NCBI GenBank assembly: GCA_944389475.1 | Contig: CALXMM010000006.1 | Span: 6,755-70,754, forward strand | Origin: an uncultured Clostridia bacterium | GTDB taxonomy: Bacteria; Bacillota; Clostridia; TANB77; CAG-508 | Direction of reading: 5' to 3' | Length of the DNA: 64,000 nucleotides | Shown here: positions 31,550-63,396 of the stretch, one piece after another | How the letters are laid out: each line of letters starts with the position of its first letter | Position numbering within the stretch: position 1 is the first letter of the stretch | Notes under the pieces: generated by a model | What the model saw: the letters and a program-made list of their open reading frames with translations, nothing else | Databases searched by the model: none | What the model was told of the DNA's origin: nothing | Position numbers and translations under genes: made by a program

Positions 31550-31625
31550 TGAACTTTAGGGACGGACCTTAAAGTTCATATTTTATGTTACCTTAATGAA
31601 CTTTTAGTTCCGTCCCATAAGTTCA
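31550..31625. repeat. 76-bp REP/BIME-like element, copy 1 (right arm lies inside the pepF 3' end)
   Basis: TGAACTTTAGGGACGGACCTTAAAGTTCA + 18 bp + TGAACTTTTAGTTCCGTCCCATAAGTTCA. Confidence 0.9.
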
Positions 31626-33378
31626 TTAATTTCTTAATATCATTTGCATAAAATTCTAATGCATTTTTGTATACTTTGCTGTCCTCTAAATCTATATCTA
31701 CAGTTTTTAATATATCTAAAGATTTTTTACTTCCACCTAATTTTAACATATTAATATATTTCTCTACAAATCCATCTTCTTTATTTAAAATTCTTGTTGC
31801 TATTTCTATTGCAGAAGAAATACCTGTTGCATATTTATATACATAGAAGCAACTATAAAAATGAGGAATTCTTGCCCAATTATATTTATTATAATCATCA
31901 ATTATTAAATCTTTGCCATAATATTTTTTGTTCAATTCCAAATAAATTTCTCCCAATTTAGTAGAATTTAATATATTTCCACTTTCTACATTTGAGTGTA
32001 CTTCCTTTTCAAATTCTGCAAACATTGATTGAGTTAATAATGTTGCTCTTACTGTTTCAATTCTATCATATAGTAAAGCCATTTTTTCTTCTTTTGTTTT
32101 CGCGGTCTCTATTCTATATTGTGCAAGTAAAATTTCATTTACTGTTGATGCTATTTCTGCTGTTAAAATTGTATAATTAGAATCTAGCACATTTTGACTT
32201 TCGCAAGCATAGTATGAATGCATTGCATGTCCAAACTCATGAGCTACTGTAGAAACATCATTAGTTGTTCCTTCATAGTTTAATAAAATATATGGATGAA
32301 CTCCATAAACAGACATATTATATCCACCACTTCTTTTATTCGGTGCTTTATATACATCCATCCAGTTTGATTCAAAAGCTTCTTTTAATTTTGCAATATA
32401 CTCTTCTCCTAATGGCTCCAATGCTTTTAGTATAATAGCTTTTGCTTCTTCTATATCCGTATATTTTTCTTCAGTTGTAAATGGATTTACATACATATCA
32501 TACATGTGAATTTCTGGTAATTTTAACATATGTTTCTTTAATTTTGTATATTCATAATTTATATTTAAATTTTCATTCACCGTGCTAATTAATTTATTGT
32601 AAACCTCAACTGTTGCATCATCTTCATCTACAGCTTTTTCCAATGAACTATTATAATTTCTTAATCTTGCCATTTTAGTGTATTCGTTAACTCTGTTTAG
32701 ATATAATTCTGTTATTGTATTTATATATTTTCCATATTCAGATACTAGTAAGGTTGAGGCTTGTTTCCTTATTTCTCTATTTTTACTACTTAATAATTTT
32801 GAATATGTTGCTTCACTTAATTCTAATTCTTCTCCATTTTCTCCTTTTATTGATGGGAACTTAATTTCTGCATTTGTTAATATGTCATATGCATTTTCTA
32901 CCCCATTAAATACATCAGAAAATCTAGATAATGCATCCTCAACATCCTTACTTAAAATATGTTTTTTGTTTTTTATAATTTCTTCTATTAATCTTTTATA
33001 TCTTTGTAATTCTTTGTTTTCATTTAAATAATTCTCCAACACTTTTGTGTCAATATCTGTTAGTTCTGGAACCATAAAAGATGTTGTTTCATCTATTTTA
33101 GCATCCAAACTTTCTGCATCTTTAAATAATTTAATTCCCTCTGGATTAGATAAATCCTTATGATATTTAAACATTCCATATGCATATATTTTGCCTATTA
33201 ATTCGGCAATTTCTTCGAAGATTTTATAGCAATTATATATATTCTCTGATGAATCTTTTAGTTTTCCTTTAAACTGCTTTATTTCTTCTAATAATTCATT
33301 TATTCTTTCTTTATCCTTTTTATAATCAGCTTCTGTTTTATATATATCTGTTAATTTCCATTCATATTTATTTTCCAT
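31588..33378 (-). CDS. pepF: Oligoendopeptidase F (M3B)
   Basis: AHEFGHAMH, AEIAST, PHFY..FYVYKYATG; start moved to ATG 33378 (RBS AAGGAGG). Confidence 0.96.
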   Translation of the reverse strand: MENKYEWKLTDIYKTEADYKKDKERINELLEEIKQFKGKLKDSSENIYNCYKIFEEIAELIGKIYAYGMFKYHKDLSNPEGIKLFKDAESLDAKIDETTSFMVPELTDIDTKVLENYLNENKELQRYKRLIEEIIKNKKHILSKDVEDALSRFSDVFNGVENAYDILTNAEIKFPSIKGENGEELELSEATYSKLLSSKNREIRKQASTLLVSEYGKYINTITELYLNRVNEYTKMARLRNYNSSLEKAVDEDDATVEVYNKLISTVNENLNINYEYTKLKKHMLKLPEIHMYDMYVNPFTTEEKYTDIEEAKAIILKALEPLGEEYIAKLKEAFESNWMDVYKAPNKRSGGYNMSVYGVHPYILLNYEGTTNDVSTVAHEFGHAMHSYYACESQNVLDSNYTILTAEIASTVNEILLAQYRIETAKTKEEKMALLYDRIETVRATLLTQSMFAEFEKEVHSNVESGNILNSTKLGEIYLELNKKYYGKDLIIDDYNKYNWARIPHFYSCFYVYKYATGISSAIEIATRILNKEDGFVEKYINMLKLGGSKKSLDILKTVDIDLEDSKVYKNALEFYANDIKKLMNLWDGTKSSLR

Positions 33379-33478
33379 AATAACCTCCTTCACATCTCTT
33401 ATATTAATAATATTTTTAATAATTTGCAATATTAAATTAAAGAAAAGTGAATGTAACTAAATTACATCCACCTTTAAC

Positions 33479-34072
33479 CTATGCTTTTTTATTCATTTCT
33501 TTTATTTTTTCATAGATATCATAAAAACTATAACATCTAATAATATTTCTGCCTTCTACATCTCTGTTATATCTTGTATCAAAACATAATATTGGTAAAA
33601 ACTCTGAAAGTTGTCTTATATTATGTGGGCTATCTTCCACCATTATATCAATATTTTTCGCTCTGCAATTTTCTAATTTATTAACAGTAGAAAAGATCAA
33701 TTCATCATAATATATTTCATTATTTTTAAACCATTGTCTTACCAATTCTTCCATTTTATTTTTAATTTCCACATCCTGAAATTCACTTGACCTTGCAGTT
33801 ATAATATAAATATTGTGCCCCTCATTTTTTAACTTATCTATTACTTCTTTTGCAAATGGTCTTGGCTTTTCCTCGATTGCATATTTGGCTTTATACTTAG
33901 CCCAAAAATCATTATCTGTTTGCTCACTCCAACTAAAAATTTCTATACTCTCATATCCTCTTGGATTTACTATTTTCCCACTACCAATTTCAGAAGCATA
34001 TTTTGTTCCATAATTTAAACAAAAATCATTAAAATTTGTTAAAACACCATCTAAATCTATTCCTATATTCAT
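33479..34072 (-). CDS. HAD-family 5'(3')-deoxyribonucleotidase-like protein
   Basis: IGIDLDGVL (DxD), ITAR, K..IDIMVEDSP. Confidence 0.85.
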   Translation of the reverse strand: MNIGIDLDGVLTNFNDFCLNYGTKYASEIGSGKIVNPRGYESIEIFSWSEQTDNDFWAKYKAKYAIEEKPRPFAKEVIDKLKNEGHNIYIITARSSEFQDVEIKNKMEELVRQWFKNNEIYYDELIFSTVNKLENCRAKNIDIMVEDSPHNIRQLSEFLPILCFDTRYNRDVEGRNIIRCYSFYDIYEKIKEMNKKA

Positions 34073-34087
34073 ATTATCCTCCCTTAT

Positions 34088-35725
34088 TTACATTATTTTA
34101 TCAAATAATTCATTCTGCTTTTTATAAATATATCTATTTATAAAATAAGTAATTATGATATGTATTATTGTAAATATTCCTGCAAATACAAAATATGAGT
34201 TGTTTTTTAAAGGTATTGCAATCACAAAAGCCACCATTATTTCTAATAGGCCAACCACAAATGGCCATAATAAATTTAAATTTTGTTTAACTACTGCATA
34301 TTCTGTAGACCAATCTAGTTTTGGTTTCTTTAAATCTACTAATTCCATTAGCAATGTTTGAATTATAATTAAAATTAAATTTATAACAAAGCATATTGCT
34401 AGAAATACAAACGATACTCTCATCACTAAATATACAAAAATTAAAATTATAATTGATGTAATAGTTCCAAATATCACATTTGGAATACCTTTATATATTA
34501 TCTGTTTATAATATGAAACAGGTATATATTTCATAAATATAGCATTGCTACCATCTCTTGATATAGCAGTTGGTGCAATATATAGCATACTATACATAAA
34601 CTCTGTTACTGCAATTATTACAGCCATTCCTATTGGTGATTGTACAAGACTTCCTAAAATAGATGTTATTGCTTGTAAATCATTTGATTCATTACTAGAA
34701 ATAGTAAAAATAGCAATCCCCAATACTAGTATTGGCATAAATACTGATGGCAATACACATTGAACAAAAAATATTGGATTTCTAAATAATATTTTTATTT
34801 CTTTAATTACATAAGTTTTTCCAATTTTTCGTGTTTTTATACTATTTATTTTTATTTTCTTTTTGGTTTTATTACCCGAAGATAAATTTCCAATTGCACC
34901 TCTAAAGTAAATCTTACTACCAATCAAAATAAATGCTAAATACCCTATAATTGTAATAATCGCTAATTTTAATAATTCTAAAATATTAGAATTTATTATT
35001 GCATTAATAGCCGGTTTTAAAATAATAAATTTATCACTAATAAGTTCTACCATTTGATTTGCTTGTAATAATTTCTCTAGTACTTCTTTTTCTGAAATAT
35101 CGGATGAGCCTGTTGATGCAAAAGAAATTGCAAAAGCTAATATTATTCCAAGAATTGGAACTATTAATTGGAATCTATCCTTATTTTTAGCTCCTTTTGT
35201 AAAACTCATTATTATCATGATTATAATAGTTGATATAATCAAAGGAATTATTGGGAATATCAACAATACTAAAAATGAAATTATATAATATTGTATTCCT
35301 ACTGCTGTTAGTACACCATAAATAATTATTGGTACCACCGCAAATAACAATTCTACTATATATTCTGTAATTAAAATTACATTCAATTTTGATATTAAAA
35401 TTTCTCTTGGTTTTAATGGTAGTGGCAAAATATACTCTAAATCCCTAGAAAAATAAAATACATTTGTTGCTGATACCATGCCTTGTATTATTATAAATAA
35501 AGCAACGCCCATCAAAAACATACCAATAAATATGGATTCTTGATTTATTTGCTTTAATGTATTTATTATTTGAAAAGAAAAGACTCCAAATAATGCCATA
35601 ACATATCCAAAAACAATAATATACAAAATTGCTGTTGCAACTTTATTTCTTTGCTTTTTATTATCATATCTTTGGAAGGAATTTTTTAAAAGAACTTTTG
35701 TAAGTGAAAATATTTTTTTATTCAT
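34088..35725 (-). CDS. ABC exporter permease (multi-pass membrane protein)
   Basis: About 12 hydrophobic segments, SRDLEYILPLP motif; overlaps the ATPase gene. Confidence 0.85.
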   Translation of the reverse strand: MNKKIFSLTKVLLKNSFQRYDNKKQRNKVATAILYIIVFGYVMALFGVFSFQIINTLKQINQESIFIGMFLMGVALFIIIQGMVSATNVFYFSRDLEYILPLPLKPREILISKLNVILITEYIVELLFAVVPIIIYGVLTAVGIQYYIISFLVLLIFPIIPLIISTIIIMIIMSFTKGAKNKDRFQLIVPILGIILAFAISFASTGSSDISEKEVLEKLLQANQMVELISDKFIILKPAINAIINSNILELLKLAIITIIGYLAFILIGSKIYFRGAIGNLSSGNKTKKKIKINSIKTRKIGKTYVIKEIKILFRNPIFFVQCVLPSVFMPILVLGIAIFTISSNESNDLQAITSILGSLVQSPIGMAVIIAVTEFMYSMLYIAPTAISRDGSNAIFMKYIPVSYYKQIIYKGIPNVIFGTITSIIILIFVYLVMRVSFVFLAICFVINLILIIIQTLLMELVDLKKPKLDWSTEYAVVKQNLNLLWPFVVGLLEIMVAFVIAIPLKNNSYFVFAGIFTIIHIIITYFINRYIYKKQNELFDKIM

Positions 35726-36443
35726 CCTGTGTAATCTCCAAAAATAAATCTTCTAGTGACCCATTATCTTTTAATTTAGCTTTCATATCTTCAAAAGTTC
35801 CAACAAAAATTAATTTTCCTTTATTTATAATTCCTACTCTATCACATAATTTTTCTGCAACATCCAATACATGTGTTGAAAAGAAAACACAATTACCTTC
35901 CTTTGCATGTTTTCTCATCATTTCTTTTAAATCAAAAGAAGCTTTAGGGTCTAAGCCTGTCATTGGTTCATCCAAAATCCAGTTCTTAGGATTGCTTAAA
36001 AGAGCTCCACAAATAACTATTTTTTGTCTCATTCCATGTGAATAACTTTGCATTTCTTCATTTAAATTATCAAAAATTCCAAATTTTTTCGTTAACTCTT
36101 CAATTCTTCTTTTTCTTATATCTGCTTGAACTTCATAAATATCACCCATAAAATTAAGATATTCTATTCCCTTTAATTTTAGAAATATATCAGGAGTATC
36201 TGGAACAAATCCAATATTCTTTTTAGCAGATATTCCTTCTTTTTTTATGTCTTTACCATCTATTAATATATGTCCTTCATCAGAGTTTAGAATTCCTGTT
36301 ATCATCTTAATAGTTGTAGTCTTACCAGCACCATTCGGTCCTAGAAAACCAAATATTTCTCCATCCTTTATTTCTAAATCCAAAGTATCAACCGACTTTT
36401 TACCTTTAACATAGGATTTAGACACATTTTCGATTTTTATCAT
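35718..36443 (-). CDS. ABC transporter ATP-binding protein
   Basis: GPNGAGKTT, YSHGMRQK, ILDEP, STH. Confidence 0.96.
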   Translation of the reverse strand: MIKIENVSKSYVKGKKSVDTLDLEIKDGEIFGFLGPNGAGKTTTIKMITGILNSDEGHILIDGKDIKKEGISAKKNIGFVPDTPDIFLKLKGIEYLNFMGDIYEVQADIRKRRIEELTKKFGIFDNLNEEMQSYSHGMRQKIVICGALLSNPKNWILDEPMTGLDPKASFDLKEMMRKHAKEGNCVFFSTHVLDVAEKLCDRVGIINKGKLIFVGTFEDMKAKLKDNGSLEDLFLEITQDE

Positions 36444-36559
36444 ATAAATCCTCCTAGTTTTTACTTATTTGATTTTACTTATTTTATATAAACTAGTCAA
36501 TATTAAATTACAAAAACATAAGCCAGCATACTAATTTTAGTTTGCTGGCTATATAACTT

Positions 36560-37351
36560 CTATCTTTGACAATCATTTCTTTGCTTTAGAAATTCTTCAT
36601 AATCCTCGTGAAAATAATATCTAAATCTATTTTCAAAACTATCTATAACTAATTTATCTTTACGAGTTCTTTTATCAAACTCAAAATGCATGTATAAAGG
36701 CAAAAAATATTCTGCAGATTTTGGACTACTTATATTATTTAAGCAAATTCCTCTATTTGCCTTATATACTGTAGAGTGACTTGCTGTTCCATCTTTTTCT
36801 GTTTCCCTCATCCTAAATGTTTTTATCTGTGTTTCATGGTTAAAAGCTATATTTTCATCTTCTACATAAACAGTACGAGTTATATGTAAAGAAGAATATC
36901 CATTATCCTTTGGACAAGCAATATAATCTTTTCTTTTTTCATGAATCTCAGTAATATTTGGATTATAACTTACTAAAAATTTTTCCATTTCATAGGCTGT
37001 TTTTATTAAAGAAGATTCATCTGTTTTTCCATTTGCAGATAAAATTATAATTTTATCCCCAAATATATCGAAGGCATCGCCTTTTTGTTCGATTTTCTCT
37101 TTATAATTATGTTTTGACTTAACTCTAGACAAAATATAGAAATCTACATTAGAAAAAGCTTGCTTTAAAATTGCATTCTCTTCTTCTAAATTTTGTACAT
37201 AAAATTTAAAATAATTGCTTTTATATACATCATATAAATTCAGTAATTGTTGTTTTTGTGCTAAATTTGGCTTTTTACCTAAAGTACGTAAATAATTAAT
37301 TAATCTATCATTTGTGAATGTAGTTTTTGTCCTTTGAGACAATATTATCAC
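36560..37351 (-). CDS. Small alarmone synthetase-like protein (RelA/SpoT synthetase domain)
   Basis: SRVKS, DIFGDKII, KDYIACPKDNGYSSLH, ETQIKT..M..GTASH..YK. Confidence 0.82.
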   Translation of the reverse strand: MIILSQRTKTTFTNDRLINYLRTLGKKPNLAQKQQLLNLYDVYKSNYFKFYVQNLEEENAILKQAFSNVDFYILSRVKSKHNYKEKIEQKGDAFDIFGDKIIILSANGKTDESSLIKTAYEMEKFLVSYNPNITEIHEKRKDYIACPKDNGYSSLHITRTVYVEDENIAFNHETQIKTFRMRETEKDGTASHSTVYKANRGICLNNISSPKSAEYFLPLYMHFEFDKRTRKDKLVIDSFENRFRYYFHEDYEEFLKQRNDCQR

Positions 37352-37391
37352 CTCTGTAATTTTTGTTTTACCTTAATTGCGCGCGAAATAA

Positions 37392-37420
37392 ATTATACCA
37401 AATTTTGGTAAATAATACAA
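37392..37420 (-). promoter_or_regulatory. Sigma-A promoter of the SAS gene
   Basis: TTGTAT-17-TATAAT with extended TG. Confidence 0.6.
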
Positions 37421-37491
37421 TAATAAAAAGTATAAATCGTTCGACTTATACTTCTAAAATTCGACATTTTATTTTTCTATTTAATAATAAT

Positions 37492-38052
37492 TTATATCTT
37501 GCCTAAATATTTTAGACTAGAAAAAATAGTGTCTAAAACTAAACATATTGGCATTAAATAAATAAGAACTCTTAATATATATGTTGGCACTTTCGATATT
37601 GATTTCTCTATTTTTTTAGAAAAAAATGGATGAATATTATTAATAAAAATTAAACCAATAAATCCCCATATAATAGTATAAAAAATACTAATTCTACCAT
37701 TTAAATTAAAGAAATCATATGTATAATCCCACCATTTAGCTGCAAAAATGGCATCTAATGCAAAACTTACAACATATTCGAATGCTGTAAATAAAATTGC
37801 AGATGCAAAAAATAATTTTATAGAATTCTTTTTATATTGGCTAATAAATAGAATCATCATTATTGCACCAAAACCATATATTGGACAAATAGGACCAAAT
37901 AAGAAACCACGTTTTGTAAAATGGCCAAGTACAAGTACAGAATATACTGTTTCCAATAACCAACCAATAAAAGAATATAAAAAGAAATATAAAACTATGT
38001 ATTCTTTTTCTGATAATTTTTTCTTTACGACTAAAGATTTTGACTCTTGCAT
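37492..38052 (-). CDS. Membrane protein, putative ABC-transporter permease (CmpB/DUF1113-like)
   Basis: YSFIGWLLE, RGFLFGPICPIYGFG, WWDY..FNLNGRI. Confidence 0.85.
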   Translation of the reverse strand: MQESKSLVVKKKLSEKEYIVLYFFLYSFIGWLLETVYSVLVLGHFTKRGFLFGPICPIYGFGAIMMILFISQYKKNSIKLFFASAILFTAFEYVVSFALDAIFAAKWWDYTYDFFNLNGRISIFYTIIWGFIGLIFINNIHPFFSKKIEKSISKVPTYILRVLIYLMPICLVLDTIFSSLKYLGKI

Positions 38053-38087
38053 AAAAACCCCCTATAACAAAGTGTAGGAGGTAAAAT

Positions 38088-39005
38088 TTAGAATTCATTA
38101 ATTTCTTTAATAGCTGTTTTAATGGCACTGGCAGAATTTTCGAATCTTGAACTTTCTTCTGGAGTAAGTGACATTAAACCTGTTTTTTCTATTCCATCAA
38201 TTCCAACAACAGAAGGTGAACTAATAAATATCTTTTGTAGTGGATCATATGATGAGACACAAATTATAGCTTTTTCATCTTCTATTATTGCTTTTGTTAT
38301 TCTTGTAAGAGCTGAGGCCACACCATAACAAGTATAAGTTTTCTTTTGAGCAATAGTAAATCCAAAATTTCTTGTTTCTTCTTCCATCTGTCCCATTTCT
38401 TCTTTTGAGAAATAATTAAAAATTGGATTTAAGCCTATTTTTGCATTACTCCATGGCACAAATTGACTATTTCCATGTTCACCAATCACATAAGCATTCA
38501 CACTCTTTGGTGATATATTAAGCCTTTTGGAAATAATATTTTGTAATCTTGCAGAATCCAATGATGTTCCTGAACCTATAATTTGACTTGTATTTAGTCC
38601 AGAATATTTCCAAGTAACATATGTCATAACATCTAATGGATTTCCAGCAATAAGTATAATACCATTAAATTTAGTACTAGCAATATTTTTAACAATATCT
38701 TTAAAAATATTTGTAGCCTTAAATAAATCTTCCATTCTAGATTTTATATTTGCCCTTTGTGAAACTCCTGCTGTTATACAAACTATTGATGCATCATTAC
38801 AATCCTCATATGTTCCAAACCTAATTTTAGTAGAACCGGCTACTAGTGGAGTACAATTTAATAAATCTAATGCTTCTCCTTCTGCTTTTTGAGTATTAAT
38901 GTCTATTAATATAATTTCATGTATATTTAAATTAGAACATAGAAGAGAATAGGCATAACTAACTCCAACATTACCTGTTCCAATTATAACTATCTTATTT
39001 TTCAT
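38088..39005 (-). CDS. ldh: L-lactate dehydrogenase-like (LDH/MDH family)
   Basis: GTGNVG, NPLD, GSGTSLDSARL, GEHG; start moved to ATG 39005 (RBS GGAGG); substrate loop diverged (AGVSQRANIKSRM). Confidence 0.8.
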   Translation of the reverse strand: MKNKIVIIGTGNVGVSYAYSLLCSNLNIHEIILIDINTQKAEGEALDLLNCTPLVAGSTKIRFGTYEDCNDASIVCITAGVSQRANIKSRMEDLFKATNIFKDIVKNIASTKFNGIILIAGNPLDVMTYVTWKYSGLNTSQIIGSGTSLDSARLQNIISKRLNISPKSVNAYVIGEHGNSQFVPWSNAKIGLNPIFNYFSKEEMGQMEEETRNFGFTIAQKKTYTCYGVASALTRITKAIIEDEKAIICVSSYDPLQKIFISSPSVVGIDGIEKTGLMSLTPEESSRFENSASAIKTAIKEINEF

Positions 39006-39102
39006 TTGTAAAAAACCTCCTAATAACTTGTACTTCATAAGTATATAGCAAAATTTTTTTACTGTAAAGAGATTAAGAAAATTTTAATAATACTCTACTT
39101 TT

Positions 39103-39690
39103 TTATTTAAATCGACTAATTGCTAATCCATCTCCGACTTCTAGAATTTCTGTCTTACAATTTTCATCCTCTGTTACTTCTTTTATATATTCACGTAAAT
39201 TTCTAACAGCTGTTCTTTGCTTATGTTTATTATAATCACTCATAACATAACCTTTATATAGAATATTATCAGCAAAAATTATTCCATTTTTATTTAACAT
39301 TCTTTTTGACTGCTCTAAAAAGAATGGATATTTCCCTTTTGCAGCATCTATAAATACAACATCATATTTATTGTTTAAAGTTGGTAAAATTTCTACTGCA
39401 TCTCCTTCTAAAATATTTATTTTATTTTCTACACCAACCTTCTTTATGTTTTCCTTAGCTTCTTCTACTCTATCATGTTCTCTTTCAATTGTATCTATTG
39501 TACCATCTTCATCTAAATATCTAGAAAAGCACATTGCGGAATATCCTACAGCAGTACCAATTTCTAACATTCTCTTAGGTTTTACTTCTTTTAAAATCTT
39601 ATCTATCACTTCTAATGTATCATCCATTAATATTGGAATATGTTCGCTTAATGCTTTTTCTTTTATTTTTTCTAATTCTACTTCGTTCAT
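39103..39690 (-). CDS. SAM-dependent O-methyltransferase (TrmR/YrrM-like)
   Basis: LEIGTAVGYSA, GDA, FIDAAKG, ADN. Confidence 0.9.
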   Translation of the reverse strand: MNEVELEKIKEKALSEHIPILMDDTLEVIDKILKEVKPKRMLEIGTAVGYSAMCFSRYLDEDGTIDTIEREHDRVEEAKENIKKVGVENKINILEGDAVEILPTLNNKYDVVFIDAAKGKYPFFLEQSKRMLNKNGIIFADNILYKGYVMSDYNKHKQRTAVRNLREYIKEVTEDENCKTEILEVGDGLAISRFK

Positions 39691-39704
39691 TAATTTTCTC
39701 CTTT

Positions 39705-39780
39705 TGAACTTTAGGGACGGACCTTAAAGTTCATTAAATTAACATAAAATTTGAACTTTTAGGTCCGTCCCTTTTGTTCA
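39705..39780. repeat. 76-bp REP/BIME-like element, copy 2 (18-bp core inverted)
   Basis: TGAACTTTAGGGACGGACCTTAAAGTTCA + TTAAATTAACATAAAATT + TGAACTTTTAGGTCCGTCCCTTTTGTTCA. Confidence 0.9.
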
Positions 39781-41607: not shown

Positions 41608-41620
41608 TTTAATTACTCCT

Positions 41621-44136: not shown

Positions 44137-44153
44137 TTTCATTCTACCTTCCA

Positions 44154-50432: not shown

Positions 50433-50444
50433 AGGAGTTATAAG

Positions 50445-52037: not shown

Positions 52038-52171
52038 ATAAATTTTTAAGAGTTCACTTTAATTAAAATAAAGTGAGCTCTTTTTATATACATCAAACAA
52101 GTTTCAAAATAAATCTTATTTCATATTATATGTATAATGATACTTTATTTAGTAGATAATATTACATATAT

Positions 52172-52996
52172 GTGAAGGGAGATATTTTCATGAAATCATT
52201 TTGTATAAAAACAAATAATAAACGTATAGTTAAATATCTACTAGATAATTTTACTTTTCCAAACACATATATAATTGCAAAGAAATTTAAAATATATCAA
52301 AATATAATTATTCATTTTACAGGCAAAAAAGATTCTAAAGAACAATCCGATTTTTATAACGCCCTTGCCAATACCTTGGTTTCGGTAATTATACATTTTT
52401 ATGAAAAGAAATTATTAAAATCAATTATTCAATCCAATTATTTTTATTTTTCAGAATCAGAACAAGATATTATATTGCAAAAATGTTTGGACTTTTTTAT
52501 AGATACATCTACTGTTGAATATCAGGTAAGAATTGAACATATTTATATTGCCGCATTAAAATATATAACCAACAACAAATCTATGATTTTAAGTGGATTC
52601 GTTAATTTTAGATTATATAATTATATGAAAATTTTAGATTATATTGTAGACAGCGCTGTAAATGAACTTGTAGTTGACAGAGAATATAAAGAATTTATAA
52701 GTTTGTTAAAATCATATGTTAACTCTAGACCATCAACTATTAATACAGTACACTTTATATATAAAAATACGGATTCAGTACTTTTAGACAGTAATTATAA
52801 AAAAATTCCATTTATAGATGATTTATCAAATTTAAACTATATTTCCGATGTCTCATTTTCTGAAAATGATATATCATTAAACACCCTTCTTACCCTTTTG
52901 CCACAAAAAATAATAATACATTTGTCAAAAGAATCCGATGATTTTATAAAAACACTAATATGTATATTTGAAAATAGAATAGAATTTGCAAAATGA
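52172..52996 (+). CDS. ytxC: Sporulation protein YtxC-like
   Basis: GFVNFRL..Y..VD.AV.E..V.REYKEFISLLK.YV, LLTLLPQKIIIH, IFENR; stop TGA supplied by the repeat. Confidence 0.8.
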   Translation: MKGDIFMKSFCIKTNNKRIVKYLLDNFTFPNTYIIAKKFKIYQNIIIHFTGKKDSKEQSDFYNALANTLVSVIIHFYEKKLLKSIIQSNYFYFSESEQDIILQKCLDFFIDTSTVEYQVRIEHIYIAALKYITNNKSMILSGFVNFRLYNYMKILDYIVDSAVNELVVDREYKEFISLLKSYVNSRPSTINTVHFIYKNTDSVLLDSNYKKIPFIDDLSNLNYISDVSFSENDISLNTLLTLLPQKIIIHLSKESDDFIKTLICIFENRIEFAK

Positions 52997-53069
52997 ACTT
53001 TAGGGACGGACCTTAAAGTTCATTTTTTATGTTAATTTGATGAACTTTTAGGTCCGTCCCCTTAGTTCA
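52994..53069. repeat. 76-bp REP/BIME-like element, copy 3 (supplies the stop codons of both convergent genes)
   Basis: TGAACTTTAGGGACGGACCTTAAAGTTCA + TTTTTTATGTTAATTTGA + TGAACTTTTAGGTCCGTCCCCTTAGTTCA. Confidence 0.9.
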
Positions 53070-54002: not shown

Positions 54003-54090
54003 AACTCAACCTTCTTTTCTTAAAATATATTTTCTTATATTTATATTTTAAGAAAAAAAGTACTTTTTTATACAAAAACATATAAATAAA

Positions 54091-54123
54091 CTGTGGTAGG
54101 AATCCATGATTTCATTACCACAG
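54091..54123 (-). terminator. Intrinsic terminator
   Basis: CTGTGGTA...TACCACAG stem. Confidence 0.6.
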
Positions 54124-54153
54124 CTTTAATTTAAATATTTATAAATATGCTTA

Positions 54154-54600: not shown

Positions 54601-54609
54601 AATTATCTC

Positions 54610-56070: not shown

Positions 56071-56105
56071 AATAATCTTCTCCTATGTTTATTCTATTTT
56101 TAGGT

Positions 56106-57134
56106 TTATTTTGAGCAATTATTACACAAAATCGTTTCTAATCCTATATTTAAATCTATATTACCAATTTTATAATTGTAATCCAAATCTATTAATGCTT
56201 TTATAATATTCGAAATTTCTAATTCTGTAAAGCTTTTTGCTTGCTTTTTATATTTATTTACTAAAAACATTTGATTAGGTTTTAAATTTAAAGATTTTGC
56301 TATATCTAATTTATATTTTTCTGCTAATTTTGTAAAGTATAATCTTTTAAAATGATTATATAAAGTAATCAAGATTTTTTGGATGGGCTCTTTATTATAA
56401 AGTAATTTATTCAATTCTTCCAGTGCTAATTTTATTTGTTTTTTACCTAGATAATCGGTTAAATTAAATATTATCGCCTGTGTTTGTTTTGTACATAACA
56501 AATCAATATCTGCTTTTGTTATTGTACCTCCTTCTCCTTCATACTCTATTAATTTTCTAATTTCATTAATAAGTTCCTGCATATTTTGACCACACTGTTC
56601 AATTAAATATTGTAATGTGTTTTCTGCAACATTTACTTTATATGCATTAGCAATAGATTTTAATCTTCCTATAATTTGATTTGGTTTTTGAAATTCAAAT
56701 TCGCATACACAAGCATTTTTTTCTAGAACTTTAAACAATTTTTGCTTTTCTACATTTTCTTCTATAAAAACTAATATTACGCTTTCATCAATTTCTTCCA
56801 TATTATTCTCTATGTATTCTGCAACACTCTTTTTTGCCTTAGCAAGTTCTGGGTCCTTTCTTTTTCCTTCCTTTTTTAGAATTCCGGAATTTCTAACAAC
56901 TATTAGTTTTTTTGGATATCCAAATGCCGGAGTTTGTATATCTGCTATTAATTCCCCTATATTTGTTTCATCAATTGTAATATAATTAATTCCATTTATA
57001 CATTCCCCAAAATTCTTCTTTATTTTCTTTACAACTGATTCTAGCAAAAATTTTTCTTCACCATATAATAGATATATACTTTTCAGTTTCTGTTCTCTTA
57101 AATCTCGTTCTAGTTCTTCGATTAACACAATCAT
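56106..57134 (-). CDS. holA: DNA polymerase III delta subunit
   Basis: IYLLYGEEKFL, NEIRKL, IFNLTD, DYNYKIG; 342 aa. Confidence 0.9.
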   Translation of the reverse strand: MIVLIEELERDLREQKLKSIYLLYGEEKFLLESVVKKIKKNFGECINGINYITIDETNIGELIADIQTPAFGYPKKLIVVRNSGILKKEGKRKDPELAKAKKSVAEYIENNMEEIDESVILVFIEENVEKQKLFKVLEKNACVCEFEFQKPNQIIGRLKSIANAYKVNVAENTLQYLIEQCGQNMQELINEIRKLIEYEGEGGTITKADIDLLCTKQTQAIIFNLTDYLGKKQIKLALEELNKLLYNKEPIQKILITLYNHFKRLYFTKLAEKYKLDIAKSLNLKPNQMFLVNKYKKQAKSFTELEISNIIKALIDLDYNYKIGNIDLNIGLETILCNNCSK

Positions 57135-57190
57135 ACCTTCTTCATAATTTTAAATTTCATAACCCGATAAAAAAGCAATCTGCACATTCT

Positions 57191-57682
57191 TTATAATTTA
57201 AATTGTGATGAAAACTTAGATGAATGTGCATGGCAAATTGCCATTGCCATACTATCTGTTATATCATCTAGTTTTGGTAGTTTTTCTACATTTAAAATCA
57301 TCTTAACCATTCTTTGAACTTGTATTTTATCTGCTCTACCATAGCCGGTTACCGCTTGTTTTACTTGTAGAGGTGTATATTCAAAAATATCTAATTTATT
57401 TATTCTTGCAGTAATTAATATTACACCTCTTGCCTGTGCTACATTAATTGCTGTTTTAGCATTATTATTGAAAAATAACTCTTCTATTGCCATTGCATCT
57501 GGTTTATATGTTTTTATAATATTATCTAAATCCGTATAAATTTTTTCCAATCTTAATGGAAATGAAACTCCTGCCTCAGTTAAGATTGCTCCAGATGTCT
57601 CTAATTTAAATTTATTTCCTATGTAATCTATTATACTGTACCCAGTTATTGCAAAACCCGGGTCTATTCCTAATATTCTCAT
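57191..57682 (-). CDS. ruvC: Holliday junction resolvase
   Basis: ILGIDPG, AIEELFF, YTPLQVKQAVTGYGRADK, DDITDSMA. Confidence 0.97.
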   Translation of the reverse strand: MRILGIDPGFAITGYSIIDYIGNKFKLETSGAILTEAGVSFPLRLEKIYTDLDNIIKTYKPDAMAIEELFFNNNAKTAINVAQARGVILITARINKLDIFEYTPLQVKQAVTGYGRADKIQVQRMVKMILNVEKLPKLDDITDSMAMAICHAHSSKFSSQFKL

Positions 57683-59778
57683 TATTTTTCCTCTTCTTCT
57701 GTTGTTTTTGATTTTTGTACCTTGTTAGAACTCAAATTTTCTTTTTTAATTTTCTCTTCTTCTATTGTTGCATCTAATAATATTCTAAATATTTCTGCAA
57801 CACTCCATGCTTGTGAAAAAGCTCCCTTTGGTAAATATGGAGGTTTAGAATCATATAATTCAGAAATACTTTGTACACAACCTTCTTTATACATCATTGC
57901 TTTTGTAGTAGTCTTTAAATTCTTTATAAATTGGTCATATTGTTTTTGCAATTCTTGTTTTGTTTTTGCAGTTTTCGTATTTTCTATAACTGCTTTATAT
58001 GCATCACTATATATTCCAAATAACCATGGCCATGTAATTCCTTGATGGTAACTTATATCTCTCCTATATGAATCTCCCTCATATGTGGCAATATATTGTT
58101 TATCTTTTCTATTTAAAGTACGTAGTCCATGTTTTGTATATAGTTCATCAGTTACTGTTTTTAATATTTCTTTTGCATTTCTTCCCGATGGATTTAATAC
58201 AGGATATGTAAGTGATAAACTAAATAATTGGTTAGGTCTTATCCTGTCATCACCTAATACATCATATAAAGATTTTTTCTCTGGATTATAAAATTTCCTA
58301 TTAAAAGATTTTTGCACTTTTTCTGCTAATTCACTATATATCTCTGATGCTTTCTTTGTCTCAAATCTCTTAGATAATTCCTCCATTATTTTTAAAGCAT
58401 TATACCATAAACTATTTATTTCTACAGCTTTTCCATTTCTTGGAGTTACTGCAAAATCACCTATTTTTACATCCATCCATGTATTTTGTGTATTTATAGT
58501 TCCAGAATGAATTAATCCATCCCTCTCCATATAAATATTATTATCATCCACATCTATTCCTGTTATATATGCTTCTACAATCTTTTTTAAACAAATATAG
58601 AAATTATCTTTTATAAATTTATAATCATGTGTATAGTTTAAATATTTCTTTATTTCTTCAAAAAGAAGCAAAGATGCATCTGCACTATTATATAAAGGTC
58701 TGTTATCATATCCTGAATAACCATTTGGTACTAAACCATATTTAACATCTCTTATAAAAGTTAAAAGAACTTCTTTAGCTATGTCAAATCTTTTTGTTTT
58801 TAGTAATAAACCTTCGAAAGCAATTAAACTGTCCCTGCCCCAATCTAGGAACCATGGATATCCTGCAATTATAGTATGCAAGCCAAATGAAGGTCTATAT
58901 GCTATAAAGCTATCTGCTGTAATTATAAAATCCTCTATTAATTCCTTATCCTCTGTTTTCTCATCAATTAATTTAGTATCTTTAACAATTTTCTTTAATC
59001 TGTCCTCTTCCTGTTTTATTATATCTTCCGCTTTTATTTCATCAATATTCTCTTCTAGAGAAAACACAAATGTTATATCTTTTTTCTCATTTGGATTAAT
59101 ATTAATTTCATATCTTCCAGGAATTGCATGATTTTCTATTGGGTCAAATCCTCTTTTTTCCTCTTCCATATAAAACATATGGTAAAATATATCATTATGA
59201 TGTTCTATATATTGTCCTTCTGAACATTTCATGTAGAAAGGTGTTTGGCTTTCATTCTTTACAATCATTTTTACTTTTGTTCCAGATATTGTCTCTTTTA
59301 AATTAAAATCTGTATCTTTGTTGATTTGATGAAAGTCCCTATAATTTATTATTGGAGCCAATGTTAATTTTGTTTTATAATTTCCGTTTTTTACTCTATA
59401 TAGCAAAACTACTGTATTTCTTCCGTATTGCATACTAATAGTTTTTTGAATAGTAATATCATCTATTTTGTATGTATATGTTGGAACATATTTCTTTTCG
59501 AATGATTCTATTCTTTTACATCCATCAGAAATATAATTATCACATATATTAGTATATAAAGGATATTTAGAACCATTAAATTCTATGGATTCATCTACTT
59601 TTGACAATATTAAAAATCTTCTTGCGGGTGGAGTTAATGCTGCTACAAGTAATCCATGATATTTTCTTGTATTAGCTCCTACAACGGTGGAAGCTGCAAA
59701 ACCTCCTATTCCATTAGAAATCACCCATTCTCTTTGAACTAAATCTTTAAAATCTCCTTTATTTACCATTATTTTCAT
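57682..59778 (-). CDS. Glycogen debranching enzyme (amylo-alpha-1,6-glucosidase)
   Basis: EWVISNGIGGFA, RKYHGLL, AGYPWFLDWGRD, TWMD, YHQG..WPW, QAWSVAE. Confidence 0.95.
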   Translation of the reverse strand: MKIMVNKGDFKDLVQREWVISNGIGGFAASTVVGANTRKYHGLLVAALTPPARRFLILSKVDESIEFNGSKYPLYTNICDNYISDGCKRIESFEKKYVPTYTYKIDDITIQKTISMQYGRNTVVLLYRVKNGNYKTKLTLAPIINYRDFHQINKDTDFNLKETISGTKVKMIVKNESQTPFYMKCSEGQYIEHHNDIFYHMFYMEEEKRGFDPIENHAIPGRYEININPNEKKDITFVFSLEENIDEIKAEDIIKQEEDRLKKIVKDTKLIDEKTEDKELIEDFIITADSFIAYRPSFGLHTIIAGYPWFLDWGRDSLIAFEGLLLKTKRFDIAKEVLLTFIRDVKYGLVPNGYSGYDNRPLYNSADASLLLFEEIKKYLNYTHDYKFIKDNFYICLKKIVEAYITGIDVDDNNIYMERDGLIHSGTINTQNTWMDVKIGDFAVTPRNGKAVEINSLWYNALKIMEELSKRFETKKASEIYSELAEKVQKSFNRKFYNPEKKSLYDVLGDDRIRPNQLFSLSLTYPVLNPSGRNAKEILKTVTDELYTKHGLRTLNRKDKQYIATYEGDSYRRDISYHQGITWPWLFGIYSDAYKAVIENTKTAKTKQELQKQYDQFIKNLKTTTKAMMYKEGCVQSISELYDSKPPYLPKGAFSQAWSVAEIFRILLDATIEEEKIKKENLSSNKVQKSKTTEEEEK

Positions 59779-59792
59779 TTGTATGCCTCCAA

Positions 59793-61349
59793 TTATTTAT
59801 TTTTCTTATTTTGTTCAATTTTTTCTATAAAATTTTCTATAAACTCTTCCTCTTTGTCCTTGTTCATATTTTTTAACATTTCTCTGTTCCTTATTTTTAC
59901 ATCTTCAGTATTTTTTATAGCATCTATACGATTACCATATCTGTCTAAAAATTTACTTTTTCTATGTTTAGGAACTGTTTCCTTTTTCTTTCTTTTTGGT
60001 TTATTTTTTATTTTATTATAATGCTTTTCGTATGCTAATTTTGATTGCAATAATAAATATTGTGGGTCAGATTGTTTATCTCTAAATTTTAAATCATCAC
60101 ATATCAATTCAGAAATAGCACGTGCAACTAAATCTGGGTTATGTCTTATATATCCATTTTCTACACAAGCTAAATCTCTTTGTATTAATCTTACTCCCAT
60201 ACTCTTAGCTTTTTGAATATCTGCTTCTACTAATTCTGCTCCTTTTAAGTTATATCTTTTTATGTATTCAGGAATTATTTCTCCGGTATCATAAATGCAA
60301 TAATCCATAACATTTTTTCCTGTATGTTCCATTATTGCCTTAATATGGTCTGATAATTTATACCCTTCAGTTTGTCCTGGTTCTGTCATTATATTACTAA
60401 TATAAACTTTTATTGCCTTACTTTCTTTCATAGCTTTATAAACACCATTTACCAATAAATTAGGTATTACATTTGTATACAAACTTCCTGGTGCAATTAC
60501 TATACAATCAGCTTCTTTTATTGCTTGTATAACATCAGGTGTAGCTCTACAGTTTGGTGGTGAAATAAAGACTCTATTAATTTTTGTAATTTTATCATAA
60601 GTAATTTTGCTTATCTTATCTTTTTCTTCTATAATCATGCCATTTTCAAGTTCTGCACATATCCTCATTTCATCATTTGTAATAGGTAGAATTTTTCCTA
60701 TTATATCAAATATTTCATCAAAATTAGATATTGCTTCTGTAAAATCTTTAGATATATCTTGTAATGTGGCAAAAAGTAAATCACTAAAAGTTATATCTTT
60801 TAAATCTCCACTTTTAAATTTATAGTTTACTAATTTATTTGCTAATTCTTCATTCTTAGCTAAAGCAATTATAGTATTTTTTATATCCTCTGTAGGCATG
60901 GAATTTATGCTATTATCTCTAATTTGTCCATATGCGGATACTGTTACAATTGCTGTTATATTATCCGTATATTTTTTTAATCCTTTTGCAACAGTTTCCA
61001 TACCATTTCCAGAACCTATTACAACAATTTTTGGACCTTCAGAATAAATTTTCTTATTAAATATTAGAGAATTTATATTTACATGTTTTCTATTATTCTT
61101 AACCCTTGAATCTGTAGATTCTATAATCATTTCCATAGTTCTTTTTTGCATGAACACAATTCCTATTACAATGCATGTAAAGCCTATAATAAATGATAAA
61201 ATAATTAAAAATAATTGTGATATTTCTAATTCTTCCTTTACAATTATAGAAGATATTCCATAACAAGCAAATACAATACCCACTAATATAAGAAATATCC
61301 ATCTTTTTATTCTTGCATTTGGTCTAAACCATTCTATAAATCCTTTCAT
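59793..61349 (-). CDS. yvcK: YvcK/GlmR-like protein with N-terminal membrane segments
   Basis: KIVVIG, AIKEAD..PGSLYT.V.PNLL, NIMTEPGQT.GY, RHNP. Confidence 0.85.
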   Translation of the reverse strand: MKGFIEWFRPNARIKRWIFLILVGIVFACYGISSIIVKEELEISQLFLIILSFIIGFTCIVIGIVFMQKRTMEMIIESTDSRVKNNRKHVNINSLIFNKKIYSEGPKIVVIGSGNGMETVAKGLKKYTDNITAIVTVSAYGQIRDNSINSMPTEDIKNTIIALAKNEELANKLVNYKFKSGDLKDITFSDLLFATLQDISKDFTEAISNFDEIFDIIGKILPITNDEMRICAELENGMIIEEKDKISKITYDKITKINRVFISPPNCRATPDVIQAIKEADCIVIAPGSLYTNVIPNLLVNGVYKAMKESKAIKVYISNIMTEPGQTEGYKLSDHIKAIMEHTGKNVMDYCIYDTGEIIPEYIKRYNLKGAELVEADIQKAKSMGVRLIQRDLACVENGYIRHNPDLVARAISELICDDLKFRDKQSDPQYLLLQSKLAYEKHYNKIKNKPKRKKKETVPKHRKSKFLDRYGNRIDAIKNTEDVKIRNREMLKNMNKDKEEEFIENFIEKIEQNKKNK

Positions 61350-61395
61350 TTTAATTTAATACATCCTTTCGAGACTAACTTAATATTTAAGTTAG

Positions 61396-62331
61396 CTAGT
61401 TTTCTAAATCTTCCCCTATGACTTGTACTTCTAATTCAATTTTCTTGCCAAATTTTTCATAGATTTTTTCACTAATGTATCTCGTTAAATTTAATATATC
61501 TTTTGCTTTTGCATTTCCTTTATTTATAACAAAACCTGCATGTTTTGTTGACACTTCTGCTCCACCTATATTATAACCTTTAAGTCCACATTCATCAATA
61601 AGTTTAGCAGTAATAAAATCTTTTCCTCTTTTAAATGTACTTCCAGCAGATGGATATTCCAATGGTTGGTGTTCTTTTCTCCATTTTGTATACTCATCCA
61701 TCTTTCCTTTTATTTCTCTATAAATTCCATGTTTTAATTTCAATTTAGTGCTTAGTACAATATACTTATTTGTACTAAAAATACTATTTCTATATTCAAA
61801 TTTTTGCTCTGCATTTGATAACACTTTTATATTTCCATCCAAATCCATGCATTTGGTTTCTAGAACAATATCCTTCATTTCTCCACTATGTGCTCCTGCA
61901 TTCATTCTTATTGCTCCACCAATAGAACCCGGTATGCCTGCTGCAAATTCGAATCCCTCAATTTCATCTATTAATAATTTTTGTGCAACATAACCATTTT
62001 TTACTCCTGCACCTACGGTAATTATGTACTCTTTATCTGGGTTTTCAGCTATGTAAAATTCATCTATACCTATTTTTAGAACAATTCCTCTTACTCCACC
62101 ATCTTTTACTAGTAAATTACTTCCATTACCAATAACAGTTAAAGGTATTTCATTTTTTACAGAATAATTTAATATGTTTTTTACATCATATTGTGTTGCT
62201 GCTATTACAAATATGTCTGCAGGACCACCAACTTTAAAAGAAGTATGCTTAGACATTAGCTCATTCTCATAAATTTTAGAATCTTTAGATATACATTTTT
62301 CTAATTCTTTGGAAACTTTTTCTATATTCAA
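61396..62331 (-). CDS. murB: UDP-N-acetylenolpyruvoylglucosamine reductase (TTG start)
   Basis: HTSFKVGGPA, GNGSNLL, GIPGSIGG..MNAGA, PSAGSTFKR, HAGFVIN. Confidence 0.97.
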   Translation of the reverse strand: MNIEKVSKELEKCISKDSKIYENELMSKHTSFKVGGPADIFVIAATQYDVKNILNYSVKNEIPLTVIGNGSNLLVKDGGVRGIVLKIGIDEFYIAENPDKEYIITVGAGVKNGYVAQKLLIDEIEGFEFAAGIPGSIGGAIRMNAGAHSGEMKDIVLETKCMDLDGNIKVLSNAEQKFEYRNSIFSTNKYIVLSTKLKLKHGIYREIKGKMDEYTKWRKEHQPLEYPSAGSTFKRGKDFITAKLIDECGLKGYNIGGAEVSTKHAGFVINKGNAKAKDILNLTRYISEKIYEKFGKKIELEVQVIGEDLEN

Positions 62332-62332
62332 A

Positions 62333-63175
62333 TTAGTCCCTCTCCTTTAAATATTTTATAACTTCATCAATACTTTCCTTAGGTGTGGAAGCTCCTGCCA
62401 TAACACCTATTTTATTTATATTTTTTAAATCTTCATTGTACAATTCTTGCACAGTTTCTATTTTGATTGCTTTTTTACAATATTTTTTGGAAATTTCATA
62501 TAATTTATTTGTATTAGAACTTTTCTTTCCACCAATTATAATCATATAATCCACTTGTTTTGCAATTTCTTCTGTTTCCTTTTGTCTATTTTCTGTAGCA
62601 TTGCAAATACTATTATAAACTTCATTTTCAGTAGTTAAGTTCTCTTTAAGATATTTTTCTATCTCAGAAAATTTTTGTAAATTATATGTTGTTTGCGTTA
62701 TTACTGCTACCTTTTCTTGTTTATTTAAATAATCGATTCTTTGCTTTAATTCATCTAGATTTTCTATTATTTCACCTTGTTTGCAAAAACTAAATGTTCC
62801 TAAAACCTCTGCATGCTTTCTTTCTCCAAATAAGACTACATAATAACCTTTTTTAGATAATTCTTCAGCCAAATTATGAACTCTTAAAACTTTTGGACAA
62901 GTACAATCCACTAATTCTATGCCATTTTCCTTAGCATAATCATAAACATCTTTTTTTACTCCATGAGCTCTAATAATTACTTTTTGTTTAGCCTCTTTAA
63001 TATCATTTATTACAACTAAACCTTTATTTTTTAATTTTTCCAATACTTGGTCATTATGCAATAAGTCTCCGAGACATTCTACCTTGTCTGACTTATCTAA
63101 CTCCTTATTTGTTTTATCTAAAGCTAATGTAATTCCTGTACAAAAGCCTGCAGTTTTACCCAATATTATTTCCAT
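62333..63175 (-). CDS. ispH: 4-hydroxy-3-methylbut-2-enyl diphosphate reductase
   Basis: AGFC, HN, RAHG, DCTCPKV, HAEV, QTT, ICNAT, SSN, AGASTP. Confidence 0.96.
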   Translation of the reverse strand: MEIILGKTAGFCTGITLALDKTNKELDKSDKVECLGDLLHNDQVLEKLKNKGLVVINDIKEAKQKVIIRAHGVKKDVYDYAKENGIELVDCTCPKVLRVHNLAEELSKKGYYVVLFGERKHAEVLGTFSFCKQGEIIENLDELKQRIDYLNKQEKVAVITQTTYNLQKFSEIEKYLKENLTTENEVYNSICNATENRQKETEEIAKQVDYMIIIGGKKSSNTNKLYEISKKYCKKAIKIETVQELYNEDLKNINKIGVMAGASTPKESIDEVIKYLKERD

Positions 63176-63290
63176 TTATATATCACCTATATTAATTTAT
63201 GCTTTCTTAGGTTGCATTATATCATATATTTTATAAATCTGTAAATTCAATTTAACATAACTTTAAAAATTTATTGCTTTTTTACATAAA

Positions 63291-63330
63291 AAAACAGTCA
63301 AATGAGTTTTTATTTTCATTTGACTGTTTT
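63291..63330. terminator. Intrinsic terminator after dnaJ
   Basis: AAAACAGTCAAATGA...TCATTTGACTGTTTT. Confidence 0.8.
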
Positions 63331-63396
63331 TGAACAATACCTAAAAGTTTTTGGTAAACATAAAATTCGAACTTTAAGGTCCGTCCCTCGTGTTCA
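63331..63396. repeat. REP/BIME-like element, copy 4 (whole element reversed, one arm internally deleted)
   Basis: TGAACAATACCTAAAAGTTTT + TGGTAAACATAAAATT + CGAACTTTAAGGTCCGTCCCTCGTGTTCA, abutting the dnaJ stop. Confidence 0.8.

Follow-up and report, generated by a model that had tools for sequence, protein, structure and literature searches.

What is the short palindromic repeat that fills whole gaps between genes in an AT-rich Clostridia genome, and which enzyme could have placed it there? The question is raised by a stretch of 64,000 nucleotides from an uncultured Clostridia bacterium (contig CALXMM010000006.1; here called the window), which has ~27% G+C and nearly all its genes on the - strand. 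Repeats of one family lie in the window at the junctions pepF|addA, typA|SAM-methyltransferase (SAM, S-adenosylmethionine), ytxC><gpr and dnaJ|ispH, here numbered sites 1 to 4; the gene names given in a first-pass annotation of this DNA were confirmed at all four. That annotation had likened the layout to the REP/BIME/REPIN elements (REP, repetitive extragenic palindrome) which are mobilised by HUH transposases, a likeness which is now supported by the finding of an arm-flanked Y1 gene and of many more copies. We consider it highly probable that the elements are head-to-head, REPIN-like dimers of a 29-bp REP or terminal inverted repeat (TIR), and that they are the cognate DNA of a single-copy Y1 HUH transposase of the RAYT (REP-associated tyrosine transposase) or TIRYT type. 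The family has many copies, its arms are arranged in "+...-" units with edges that abut genes, and across many genomes the hairpins are linked to a Y1 gene and have covarying stems.

The unit is the 29-mer TGAACTTTAGGGACGGACCTTAAAGTTCA, which is found exactly on the + strand at 31550, 39705 and 52994 (0 occurrences are expected in shuffled sequence), so that the identity of the left arm in three copies, already noticed in the first reading, is borne out. It consists of a 9-bp stem, TGAACTTTA/TAAAGTTCA, which closes an 11-nt loop, GGGACGGNCCT, starting with GGGAC. An inverted and imperfect partner with 4 mismatches is found 47 bp downstream of each exact arm (at 31597, 39752 and 53041), and the window holds a total of 7 arms, which make up three inverted dimers of 76 bp and one half-decayed copy. 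Originally four two-arm copies were described; three of them stand, and the fourth, at 63331, has no recognisable left arm. The description of each arm as a hairpin in itself holds for the perfect arm, whereas the imperfect arms taken singly are weak hairpins. Every one of the four elements exactly fills the gap between two genes. A search of the window with an nhmmer profile made from 206 arms of relatives returned the same 7 arms and a single remnant at 12376-12388. The single arm is a near-palindrome which as RNA folds into a 12-bp stem with a 5-nt loop (-13.7 kcal/mol), and each 76-bp dimer folds into one long hairpin (-34 to -42 kcal/mol, z -7 to -9). The same elements are present in independent assemblies from 8-10 other metagenomes and are therefore not an assembly artefact.

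An alignment of 247 distinct copies gives the unit sharp edges at positions 1-29, with no conservation 5' of them and a weak tail, AATTTTATGTAAA, found only 3' of the arm on the GGGACGG strand; the invariant bases are the GGGAC of the loop. Clusters of two arms have the "+-" order in 38 of 41 cases, with a modal offset of 46-47 bp, and this order of neighbouring arms is nearly constant from a separation of 35 bp to one of 2.4 kb. Single arms are frequent (147 of 189 clusters). It is the outer edges of the units that abut the neighbouring genes, with stop codons at a median of 2 nt and the next start codons at ~21 nt, and the interior is the variable part. A bias in the orientation of single arms relative to transcription was considered as a functional signal and dropped, since the "+...-" rule, by which outer arms abut genes, accounts for it.

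The family is numerous beyond the window. The exact-stem pattern is present at 86 loci in metagenome-assembled genomes (MAGs) of uncultured gut Clostridia, which include the BRZ series, Clostridium sp. CAG:354 and Ca. Caccenecus; a scan of metagenomes, human gut samples among them, gave at least 120 loci, and the related MAG bin74 has at least 49 distinct arms. In X1, the metagenome run which holds 90% of the sampled words of the window, the summed depth of the perfect arm is ~2600 compared to 23.6 in the flanks (~108-fold), contigs break at the arms, and most of the listed arm-bearing contigs have a depth of 19-26. By this measure the window's genome would have arms in the order of 100, although part of the depth may come from other species in the sample. 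Other stems with the same loop are also dispersed repeats in the clade. The arm sequence was not found in the literature searched.

Inside one of the longer arm-to-arm intervals two MAGs have an open reading frame (ORF) of 255 aa, which matches Pfam Y1_Tnp (E 1e-10) at residues 14-124 and has weak matches to Sigma70_r4 and HTH_19 at residues 229-254; the profile of the protein aligns to a helix-turn-helix (HTH) of the DeoR type at E 0.07. The best match in NCBIfam is the REP-associated tyrosine transposase NF047646, over nearly the full length of the profile. Among 40 homologues the HUH motif (NHAH) and YIHNNP are invariant, and a C-terminal, helical, HTH-like extension is present in all. The AF2 model of the 255-aa protein (pLDDT 87.7) has helices at 187-254, and a fold search with this model gave as the first match the structure of E. 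coli TnpA-REP with a REP hairpin (4ER8; E 3.8e-5, TMt 0.69), the next best being ISDra2 and IS608 TnpA. A phmmer search of the protein against PDB sequences gave no match; the link to TnpA-REP rests on Pfam, NCBIfam and the fold. The gene order in every clade species examined is a PMT_2-family membrane protein, a "+" arm, Y1, a "-" arm and queH, and there is one Y1 locus per MAG in the clade (L036, L022, L097-L106, L181, L307, L311-L313). A Y1/RAYT transposase flanked by the motif, which had been proposed as the thing to look for, is thus found in relatives at PMT_2|Y1|queH. A second and distant Y1 homologue (35% identity) is situated at L038:2458-2856, ~2 kb from an arm and not flanked by arms.

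A wider scan found 80 loci of this Y1 protein family in many Clostridia, and ~70 of the 80 are flanked by hairpin inverted repeats. These hairpins have an 11-nt loop starting with GGGAC, combined with at least 8 unrelated stem sequences, for example TGAACTTTA, TTGCCAAAA, CTGTTTTTG, GAGTCAAAA, GTGTCAAAA, GAGATTTTT and TGAGACAAGT. Compensatory changes were seen at 9 of 9 stem pairs in 15 such hairpins, with GGGAC invariant. It should be noted that the 15 hairpins were picked for possessing a stem, so the count of compensatory changes illustrates the pattern and is no test of it; the independent fact is that the same loop motif recurs beside one protein family together with many different stems.

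The window's own genome probably also has the Y1 gene, outside the window. Run X1 contains a 1067-nt contig with a depth of 20.6 and a match of ~82% to the Y1 gene of the closest species (bin20, L311), and contigs for the syntenic neighbours of Y1 have depths of 22-28; it is this agreement in depth, together with the syntenic neighbours, that points to a Y1 gene in the same genome.

Why the repeats can sit so close to genes may be seen from the arm itself. Read from the sequence, it carries stop codons in all three frames and in both orientations (TGA at positions 1-3, TAG/TAA at 8-10, TAA at 21-23), which explains that arms are tolerated at gene ends. A survey of 208 gene 3' ends beside an element found 18 that stop on the TGA of the arm, 17 that abut the arm, 34 that read into it and 31 within 10 nt; in 52 of the 208 the gene ends in or reads into an arm. 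An arm which lands on, or slips into, the last codons of a gene would end the protein within 23 nt, and in this compact genome arms could thereby lie against the end of a gene, take its place or be read as such. The proposal that the element targets or supplies stop codons is therefore right as to supply, and no target sequence could be defined. What had been stated about the individual genes (the terminal TGA/TCA as the stops of ytxC and gpr, the abutted stops of typA and dnaJ, the reading of pepF through one arm) agrees with the coordinates in Table 1.

Comparison with relatives illustrates how the gene ends change. The orthologues of pepF end with ...LI-TAA directly before their single arm; pepF of the window has lost its own stop codon and is extended by 12 codons through the arm, and a point change there has also removed the TAA of frame 3. 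In the closest species, bin20, the gap gpr|ytxC holds one hairpin with a different stem, TAGGGATTTT...AAAATCCCTA, from which both genes take a TAG stop at identical residue positions. It belongs to a second hairpin family, with the stem (T)AGGGATTT/AAATCCC(TA) and the same GGAC-type loop, which is found in this gap in relatives (L227:4934-4965 and L228-L233); other species have arrays of it. Within the species of the window, one strain has a 3-bp deletion which turns the TGA of the arm into the stop codon of dnaJ, and another variant has an 11-bp tandem duplication (TGAACTAAGGG twice) at the gpr-proximal arm.

The four sites are not young. We found sites 3 and 4 in 10 contigs from conspecific metagenome strains, and sites 1 and 2 in 8; the differences between these contigs at the four sites are single nucleotide polymorphisms (SNPs) and small indels only, from which the perfect arms are free. 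All conspecific SNPs (L087-L096, L391-L398) are in the imperfect arm or the spacer, with 0 in the three perfect arms; this hints at constraint on, or homogenisation of, one arm, although the numbers do not suffice for a test. At the orthologous site of L002 the addA-proximal arm is identical in 29/29 positions, the flanking genes being 75% identical, and the probability of such identity in unconstrained sequence is ~2e-4. With the sites fixed and an arm identical between species, the identical arms reflect constraint or homogenisation and not fresh insertion. The description of the element as "recently active" is not upheld, given four sites fixed in 8-10 conspecific strains and a 29/29 arm at 25% divergence.

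Between species most sites carry some hairpin of the family, and its form varies. Site 1 is a singlet in one species and a dimer in another. The site at 12.4 kb is a remnant in the window, a single arm in L025, and a dimer with a third hairpin in L033, L048 and L067. Window positions 20893-20895 are an empty junction where L065 has a fill of 85 bp. The interiors of orthologous junctions measure 30, 76, 150-250 or >850 bp, some of them with accessory genes. Comparison of empty and filled sites in relatives, which had been suggested as a means of defining the target and any duplication, gave differences in occupancy between species; neither a target nor a duplication could be defined. The family is long-lived and vertically carried with a slow turnover, its copies in the species of the window being old and fixed.

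Some further observations concern single junctions. At the orthologous junction downstream of addA, two species have the 11-nt loop in opposite orientations (L004:3704-3732 and L009:5562-5590) with the same stem and flanks, which may be due either to loop flipping or to independent insertion in both orientations. The homology of L004:1-110 to the window at 31550 begins inside the arm, where only CTTAAAGTTCA is left and the upstream sequence is unrelated, so a synteny breakpoint lies within a hairpin. At dnaJ-ispH (window 63176-63396) relatives have 4-5 kb of extra genes (L063:2551-7594, L023:1589-5962), one of which is a 161-aa ORF between inverted arms; the window has only a half-element and a terminator there.

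The mechanism that we propose is drawn by analogy with TnpA-REP and the TnpA of IS200/IS605. The Y1 enzyme would bind the hairpin extruded in single-stranded DNA, would read the GGGAC of the loop as its specific determinant, and would cut and rejoin DNA beside the hairpin, with the result that dimers are copied or lost at gene junctions; now and then arms might be copied or lost in the same way together with the DNA between them. As RNA, the stop-proximal arm with its U-rich tail might be a weak terminator or a 3' stabiliser, and we infer from the analogy to REPs of E. coli that arms may have a role as attenuators or 3' stabilisers.

Several findings weigh against this reading. The hallmark of REPs, GTAG, is absent at the hairpin foot of the arms. 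No target motif, target duplication or cleavage site is definable, the flanks of the arms being merely T-rich and without direct repeats. Insertion or excision polymorphism was not seen, as 4/4 sites are fixed in 8-10 conspecific strains, and different species still have arms at orthologous sites, one of these without a change in 29/29 positions. The NF047646 score is 62-64 bits, under the curated cut-off of 80, and the profile reaches only E 0.13 to 4ER8 among PDB sequences, which is not significant. The Y1 gene of the window's genome is known only from the depth-matched X1 contig and not from the window's contig, and the depth-based copy number may include other species of the sample. The persistence of arms at orthologous sites leaves present-day mobility unproven; selection at the level of the host could maintain them.

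This leads to the first of the alternatives, that transposition has long ceased and that the arms today are mainly selected cis-elements of the host. Such a state of affairs is compatible with a transposase origin, and we regard it as possible though rather unlikely. Possible roles are terminators or attenuators, stabilisers of mRNA 3' ends, structured spacers before the ribosome-binding site (RBS), or sites for the HTH of a domesticated Y1 protein. The fixation of the sites, the invariance of the perfect arm beside SNPs in partner arm and spacer, and the one arm conserved at 29/29 despite 25% divergence of its flanks all speak for it, as does the stability of the hairpins as RNA; moreover the convergent gap gpr|ytxC always has a GGGAC-type hairpin where GPR identity is at least 85%. 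A GGGACGG-sense arm followed by a T-rich tail resembles a terminator at 31550 and 52990; in a scan for the terminator pattern the match at 52990-53026 has the sense of ytxC and the one at 31550 is antisense to the local genes. The arm at 39705 and the RBS-proximal arms, those of sites 1 and 2 included, have no U run on the sense strand, which speaks against host elements. Against them stand also the ~100 copies with stems specific to each Y1 lineage, and the occurrence of arms in all types of intergenic region, divergent ones included, near the background proportions. Finally the same site varies by species between singlet, dimer and another stem family, and this turnover of site structure is not easily explained if the arms have a fixed role in regulation.

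Two other kinds of mobile DNA have to be considered. The inverted pairs of arms, 35 bp to 2.4 kb apart and with a variable interior, could suggest a classical miniature inverted-repeat transposable element (MITE), that is a deletion derivative of a DDE insertion sequence which ends in inverted repeats of 29 bp, moves by cut-and-paste and duplicates its target site. This is very improbable: the three dimers of the window have no flanking direct repeats, no DDE transposase is present in any examined arm-to-arm interior (which have Y1, TetR, Phd/YefM, methyltransferases and unknowns instead), single arms are common, and an arm that forms a hairpin on its own, with a conserved loop and a covarying stem, suits an HUH enzyme acting on single strands. 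That the arms are imperfect palindromes exactly at gene ends, and that some pairs bracket single accessory genes, recalls the attC recombination sites which mark integron cassettes. We give this explanation hardly any probability, since the copies in the window lie beside core genes (typA, dnaJ, pepF, addA, gpr) whose synteny is conserved, no intI integrase gene is found among the examined genes next to arms, the termini as read do not match the consensus RYYYAAC/GTTRRRY, and the associated enzyme is a Y1 HUH protein. A CRISPR array, a CIRCE operator, parS, dif and attC were ruled out on sequence and layout.

A bolder version of the transposase reading concerns the DNA between arms. Inverted arm pairs bracket a TetR regulator, a Phd/YefM antitoxin, two paralogous DUF3419/methyltransferase genes, a 367-aa protein without Pfam match, and a gene split into overlapping ORFs (113 and 122 aa). 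The unit with the split gene in bin74 (L079:6284-7161) is that of L073 in bin18, and the orthologous junction of L131 has no cargo. One may speculate that a pair of inverted arms is an "operon-safe" insertion module handled by Y1, whose content is gained, swapped or lost at a junction, an idea that we hold to be unlikely. The content would then be 18 bp, 150-250 bp, a single accessory gene (TetR, Phd/YefM, methyltransferases) or the transposase; the upstream gene would receive a stop codon, along with a terminator-like hairpin, from the outer arms, and the RBS of the downstream gene would be left intact. If true, this would be a gene-cassette system of gut Clostridia based on an HUH transposase.

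The coordinates of the features are presented in Table 1.

Table 1. Arms, spacers, remnants and related features, in window coordinates unless an L number is given
Feature	Position	Strand	Remarks
Site 1, perfect arm, GGGACGG sense	31550..31578	+	(-) strand end meets addA RBS AAAGGAG; unchanged in 4 conspecific contigs
Site 1, spacer, 18 bp, AT-rich, tail TATTTTATGTTA	31579..31596	.	Contains the pepF stop codon (31588-31590), reached after reading through the whole arm 31597-31625
Site 1, imperfect inverted arm	31597..31625	-	Codes for most of the last 12 codons of pepF (MNLWDGTKSSLR), the final ones being in the spacer
Site 2, perfect arm	39705..39733	+	Adjoins RBS AAAGGAG of the SAM-methyltransferase gene (39103-39690, - strand)
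Site 2, spacer	39734..39751	.	Tail AATTTTATGTTAA on the - strand, after the typA-proximal arm
Site 2, imperfect inverted arm	39752..39780	-	Abuts typA stop codon 39781-39783
Site 3, perfect arm	52994..53022	+	First bases TGA (52994-52996) are the ytxC stop codon; with the T-rich tail terminator-like for ytxC
Site 3, spacer with tail TTTTTTATGTTAATTTGA	53023..53040	.	
Site 3, imperfect inverted arm	53041..53069	-	Final bases TCA (53067-53069) are the gpr stop codon (TGA on the - strand)
Site 4, lone arm, 4 mismatches	63368..63396	-	Abuts dnaJ stop codon 63397-63399
Site 4, tail AATTTTATGTTTACC (63353-63367, - strand) and decayed remnant of partner arm (63331-63352)	63331..63367	-	Remnant missed by the profile
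Ordinary intrinsic terminator, stem ACAGTCAAATGAG/CTCATTTGACTGT and T run	63286..63330	-	After site 4; outside the repeat family
Half-arm remnant TTTGAACTTTAAG	12376..12388	.	Between two - strand genes
Within-species variants (dnaJ 3-bp deletion; gpr-side 11-bp duplication)	L089:590-620 and L090:10936-11018		
Arm-bracketed accessory genes	L056:4451-5397, L060:3173-4228, L012:2448-4866, L078:5583-6990, L073:2206-3082		

There was no match to Rfam at gathering thresholds in the whole window, and the search for tRNA and tmRNA genes found none. The GC skew is strongly negative (~-0.3) across 1-64000, the exception being the glycogen cluster at ~49-52 kb, where it is near zero. Downstream of addA there are 424 bp free of ORFs (27490-27913) with strong hairpins at ~27508-27548 and ~27630-27665; a permissive Rfam scan of 27400-28000 gave matches at chance level only, and relatives have at this spot two arms 203 bp apart (L007) or an arm-bounded insertion of 3.1 kb (L004, L009).

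How does the system compare with those already described? The REP/REPIN-RAYT systems, that is TnpA-REP with REP/BIME in E. coli and the REPINs of Pseudomonas (Nunvar, 2010; Bertels and Rainey, 2011; Ton-Hoang, 2012; Messing, 2012; PMC3116915; PMC5581495), have much in common with it: short palindromes repeated tens to hundreds of times between genes, dimers of inverted units which fold together as one long hairpin, a Y1 HUH gene that is present once, has the repeats inverted on either side and is inherited vertically at a conserved locus, and a long persistence at orthologous sites with a pattern of slow turnover (PMC5581495). 4ER8, the best fold match of the Y1 model, is the structure of TnpA-REP. 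The arms differ by having no GTAG (or CGTC) tag at the foot of the hairpin, GGGAC being found at the 5' side of the 11-nt loop, and by overlapping the ends of coding sequences, which they supply with stop codons. The Y1 protein differs by its C-terminal HTH and by its score under the NCBIfam RAYT cut-off, and the host is an uncultured low-GC lineage of gut Clostridia. RAYTs of group 1 have been noted in Clostridia (PMC5581495), and no REP family from Firmicutes was found in the REP surveys consulted. Presence and absence of copies among close strains, which would be evidence of movement, was not seen here: 4/4 sites were found in all 8-10 conspecific contigs, and occupancy differs only between species.

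The Y1 proteins of the TIRYT/TIRtron class have a C-terminal HTH, and their flanking inverted repeats share GGGG[AT][CG]A[CG]; among these TIRs are self-complementary ones which are scattered singly and as dimers (Di Nocera et al., 2013, PMC3733652). The class was equated with TnpA-REP subclass 2.1, which has the C-terminal HTH, in a survey that found no REP-like hairpins beside genes of this subclass (Quentin et al., 2018, PMC6006769). Our system shares with TIRYT/TIRtron both the HTH-bearing Y1 protein and the flanking terminal inverted repeats. The TIRYT motif is fitted exactly by GGGGACAC variants in more distant homologues; in the clade of the window, with (G)GGGACGG, GGGGACGG is one base off, the mismatch being at position 7. 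What differs from the survey of subclass 2.1 is that the TIR is here a clean stem-loop with a covarying stem and belongs to a family of ~50-100 copies. Likened by such features, and not by phylogeny, the system seems to fit TIRYT/TIRtron better than the classical REPs.

With IS200/IS605 (IS608, ISDra2) the system shares the Y1 HUH fold, these being the next-best structural matches, the lack of target duplications and, presumably, hairpin ends which are recognised as single-stranded DNA. The ends of those elements are two different subterminal hairpins, whereas here both ends are inverted copies of one, and those elements are autonomous and present in multiple copies, whereas here a single-copy gene stays at a fixed locus and the repeats travel without it. 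Palindromes tolerated in or at the edge of coding sequence, as in pepF with its 12 added codons, are known from the Rickettsia palindromic elements (RPEs) and other in-gene REPs. RPEs, however, insert in frame and are translated through, while the arm here ends translation by its stops in all frames.

The comparison places a REPIN/RAYT-like system of the TIRYT type in an abundant, uncultured, low-GC lineage of gut Clostridia and ties the HTH-bearing subclass of Y1 proteins to clean hairpin repeats. The constant GGGAC at the start of the loop, combined with freely covarying stems over dozens of enzyme lineages, amounts to a natural experiment on how such enzymes read DNA. For annotation, the arms account for stop codons that come from repeats, for short extensions at the C-terminus and for contigs that break when these organisms are assembled from metagenomes. 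Set beside the known systems, the features worth noting are an arm with stops in three frames which is used as a gene end, arm pairs some of which bracket cargo, and a specific determinant which, if the analogy to TnpA-REP and IS200/IS605 holds, would be located in the loop.

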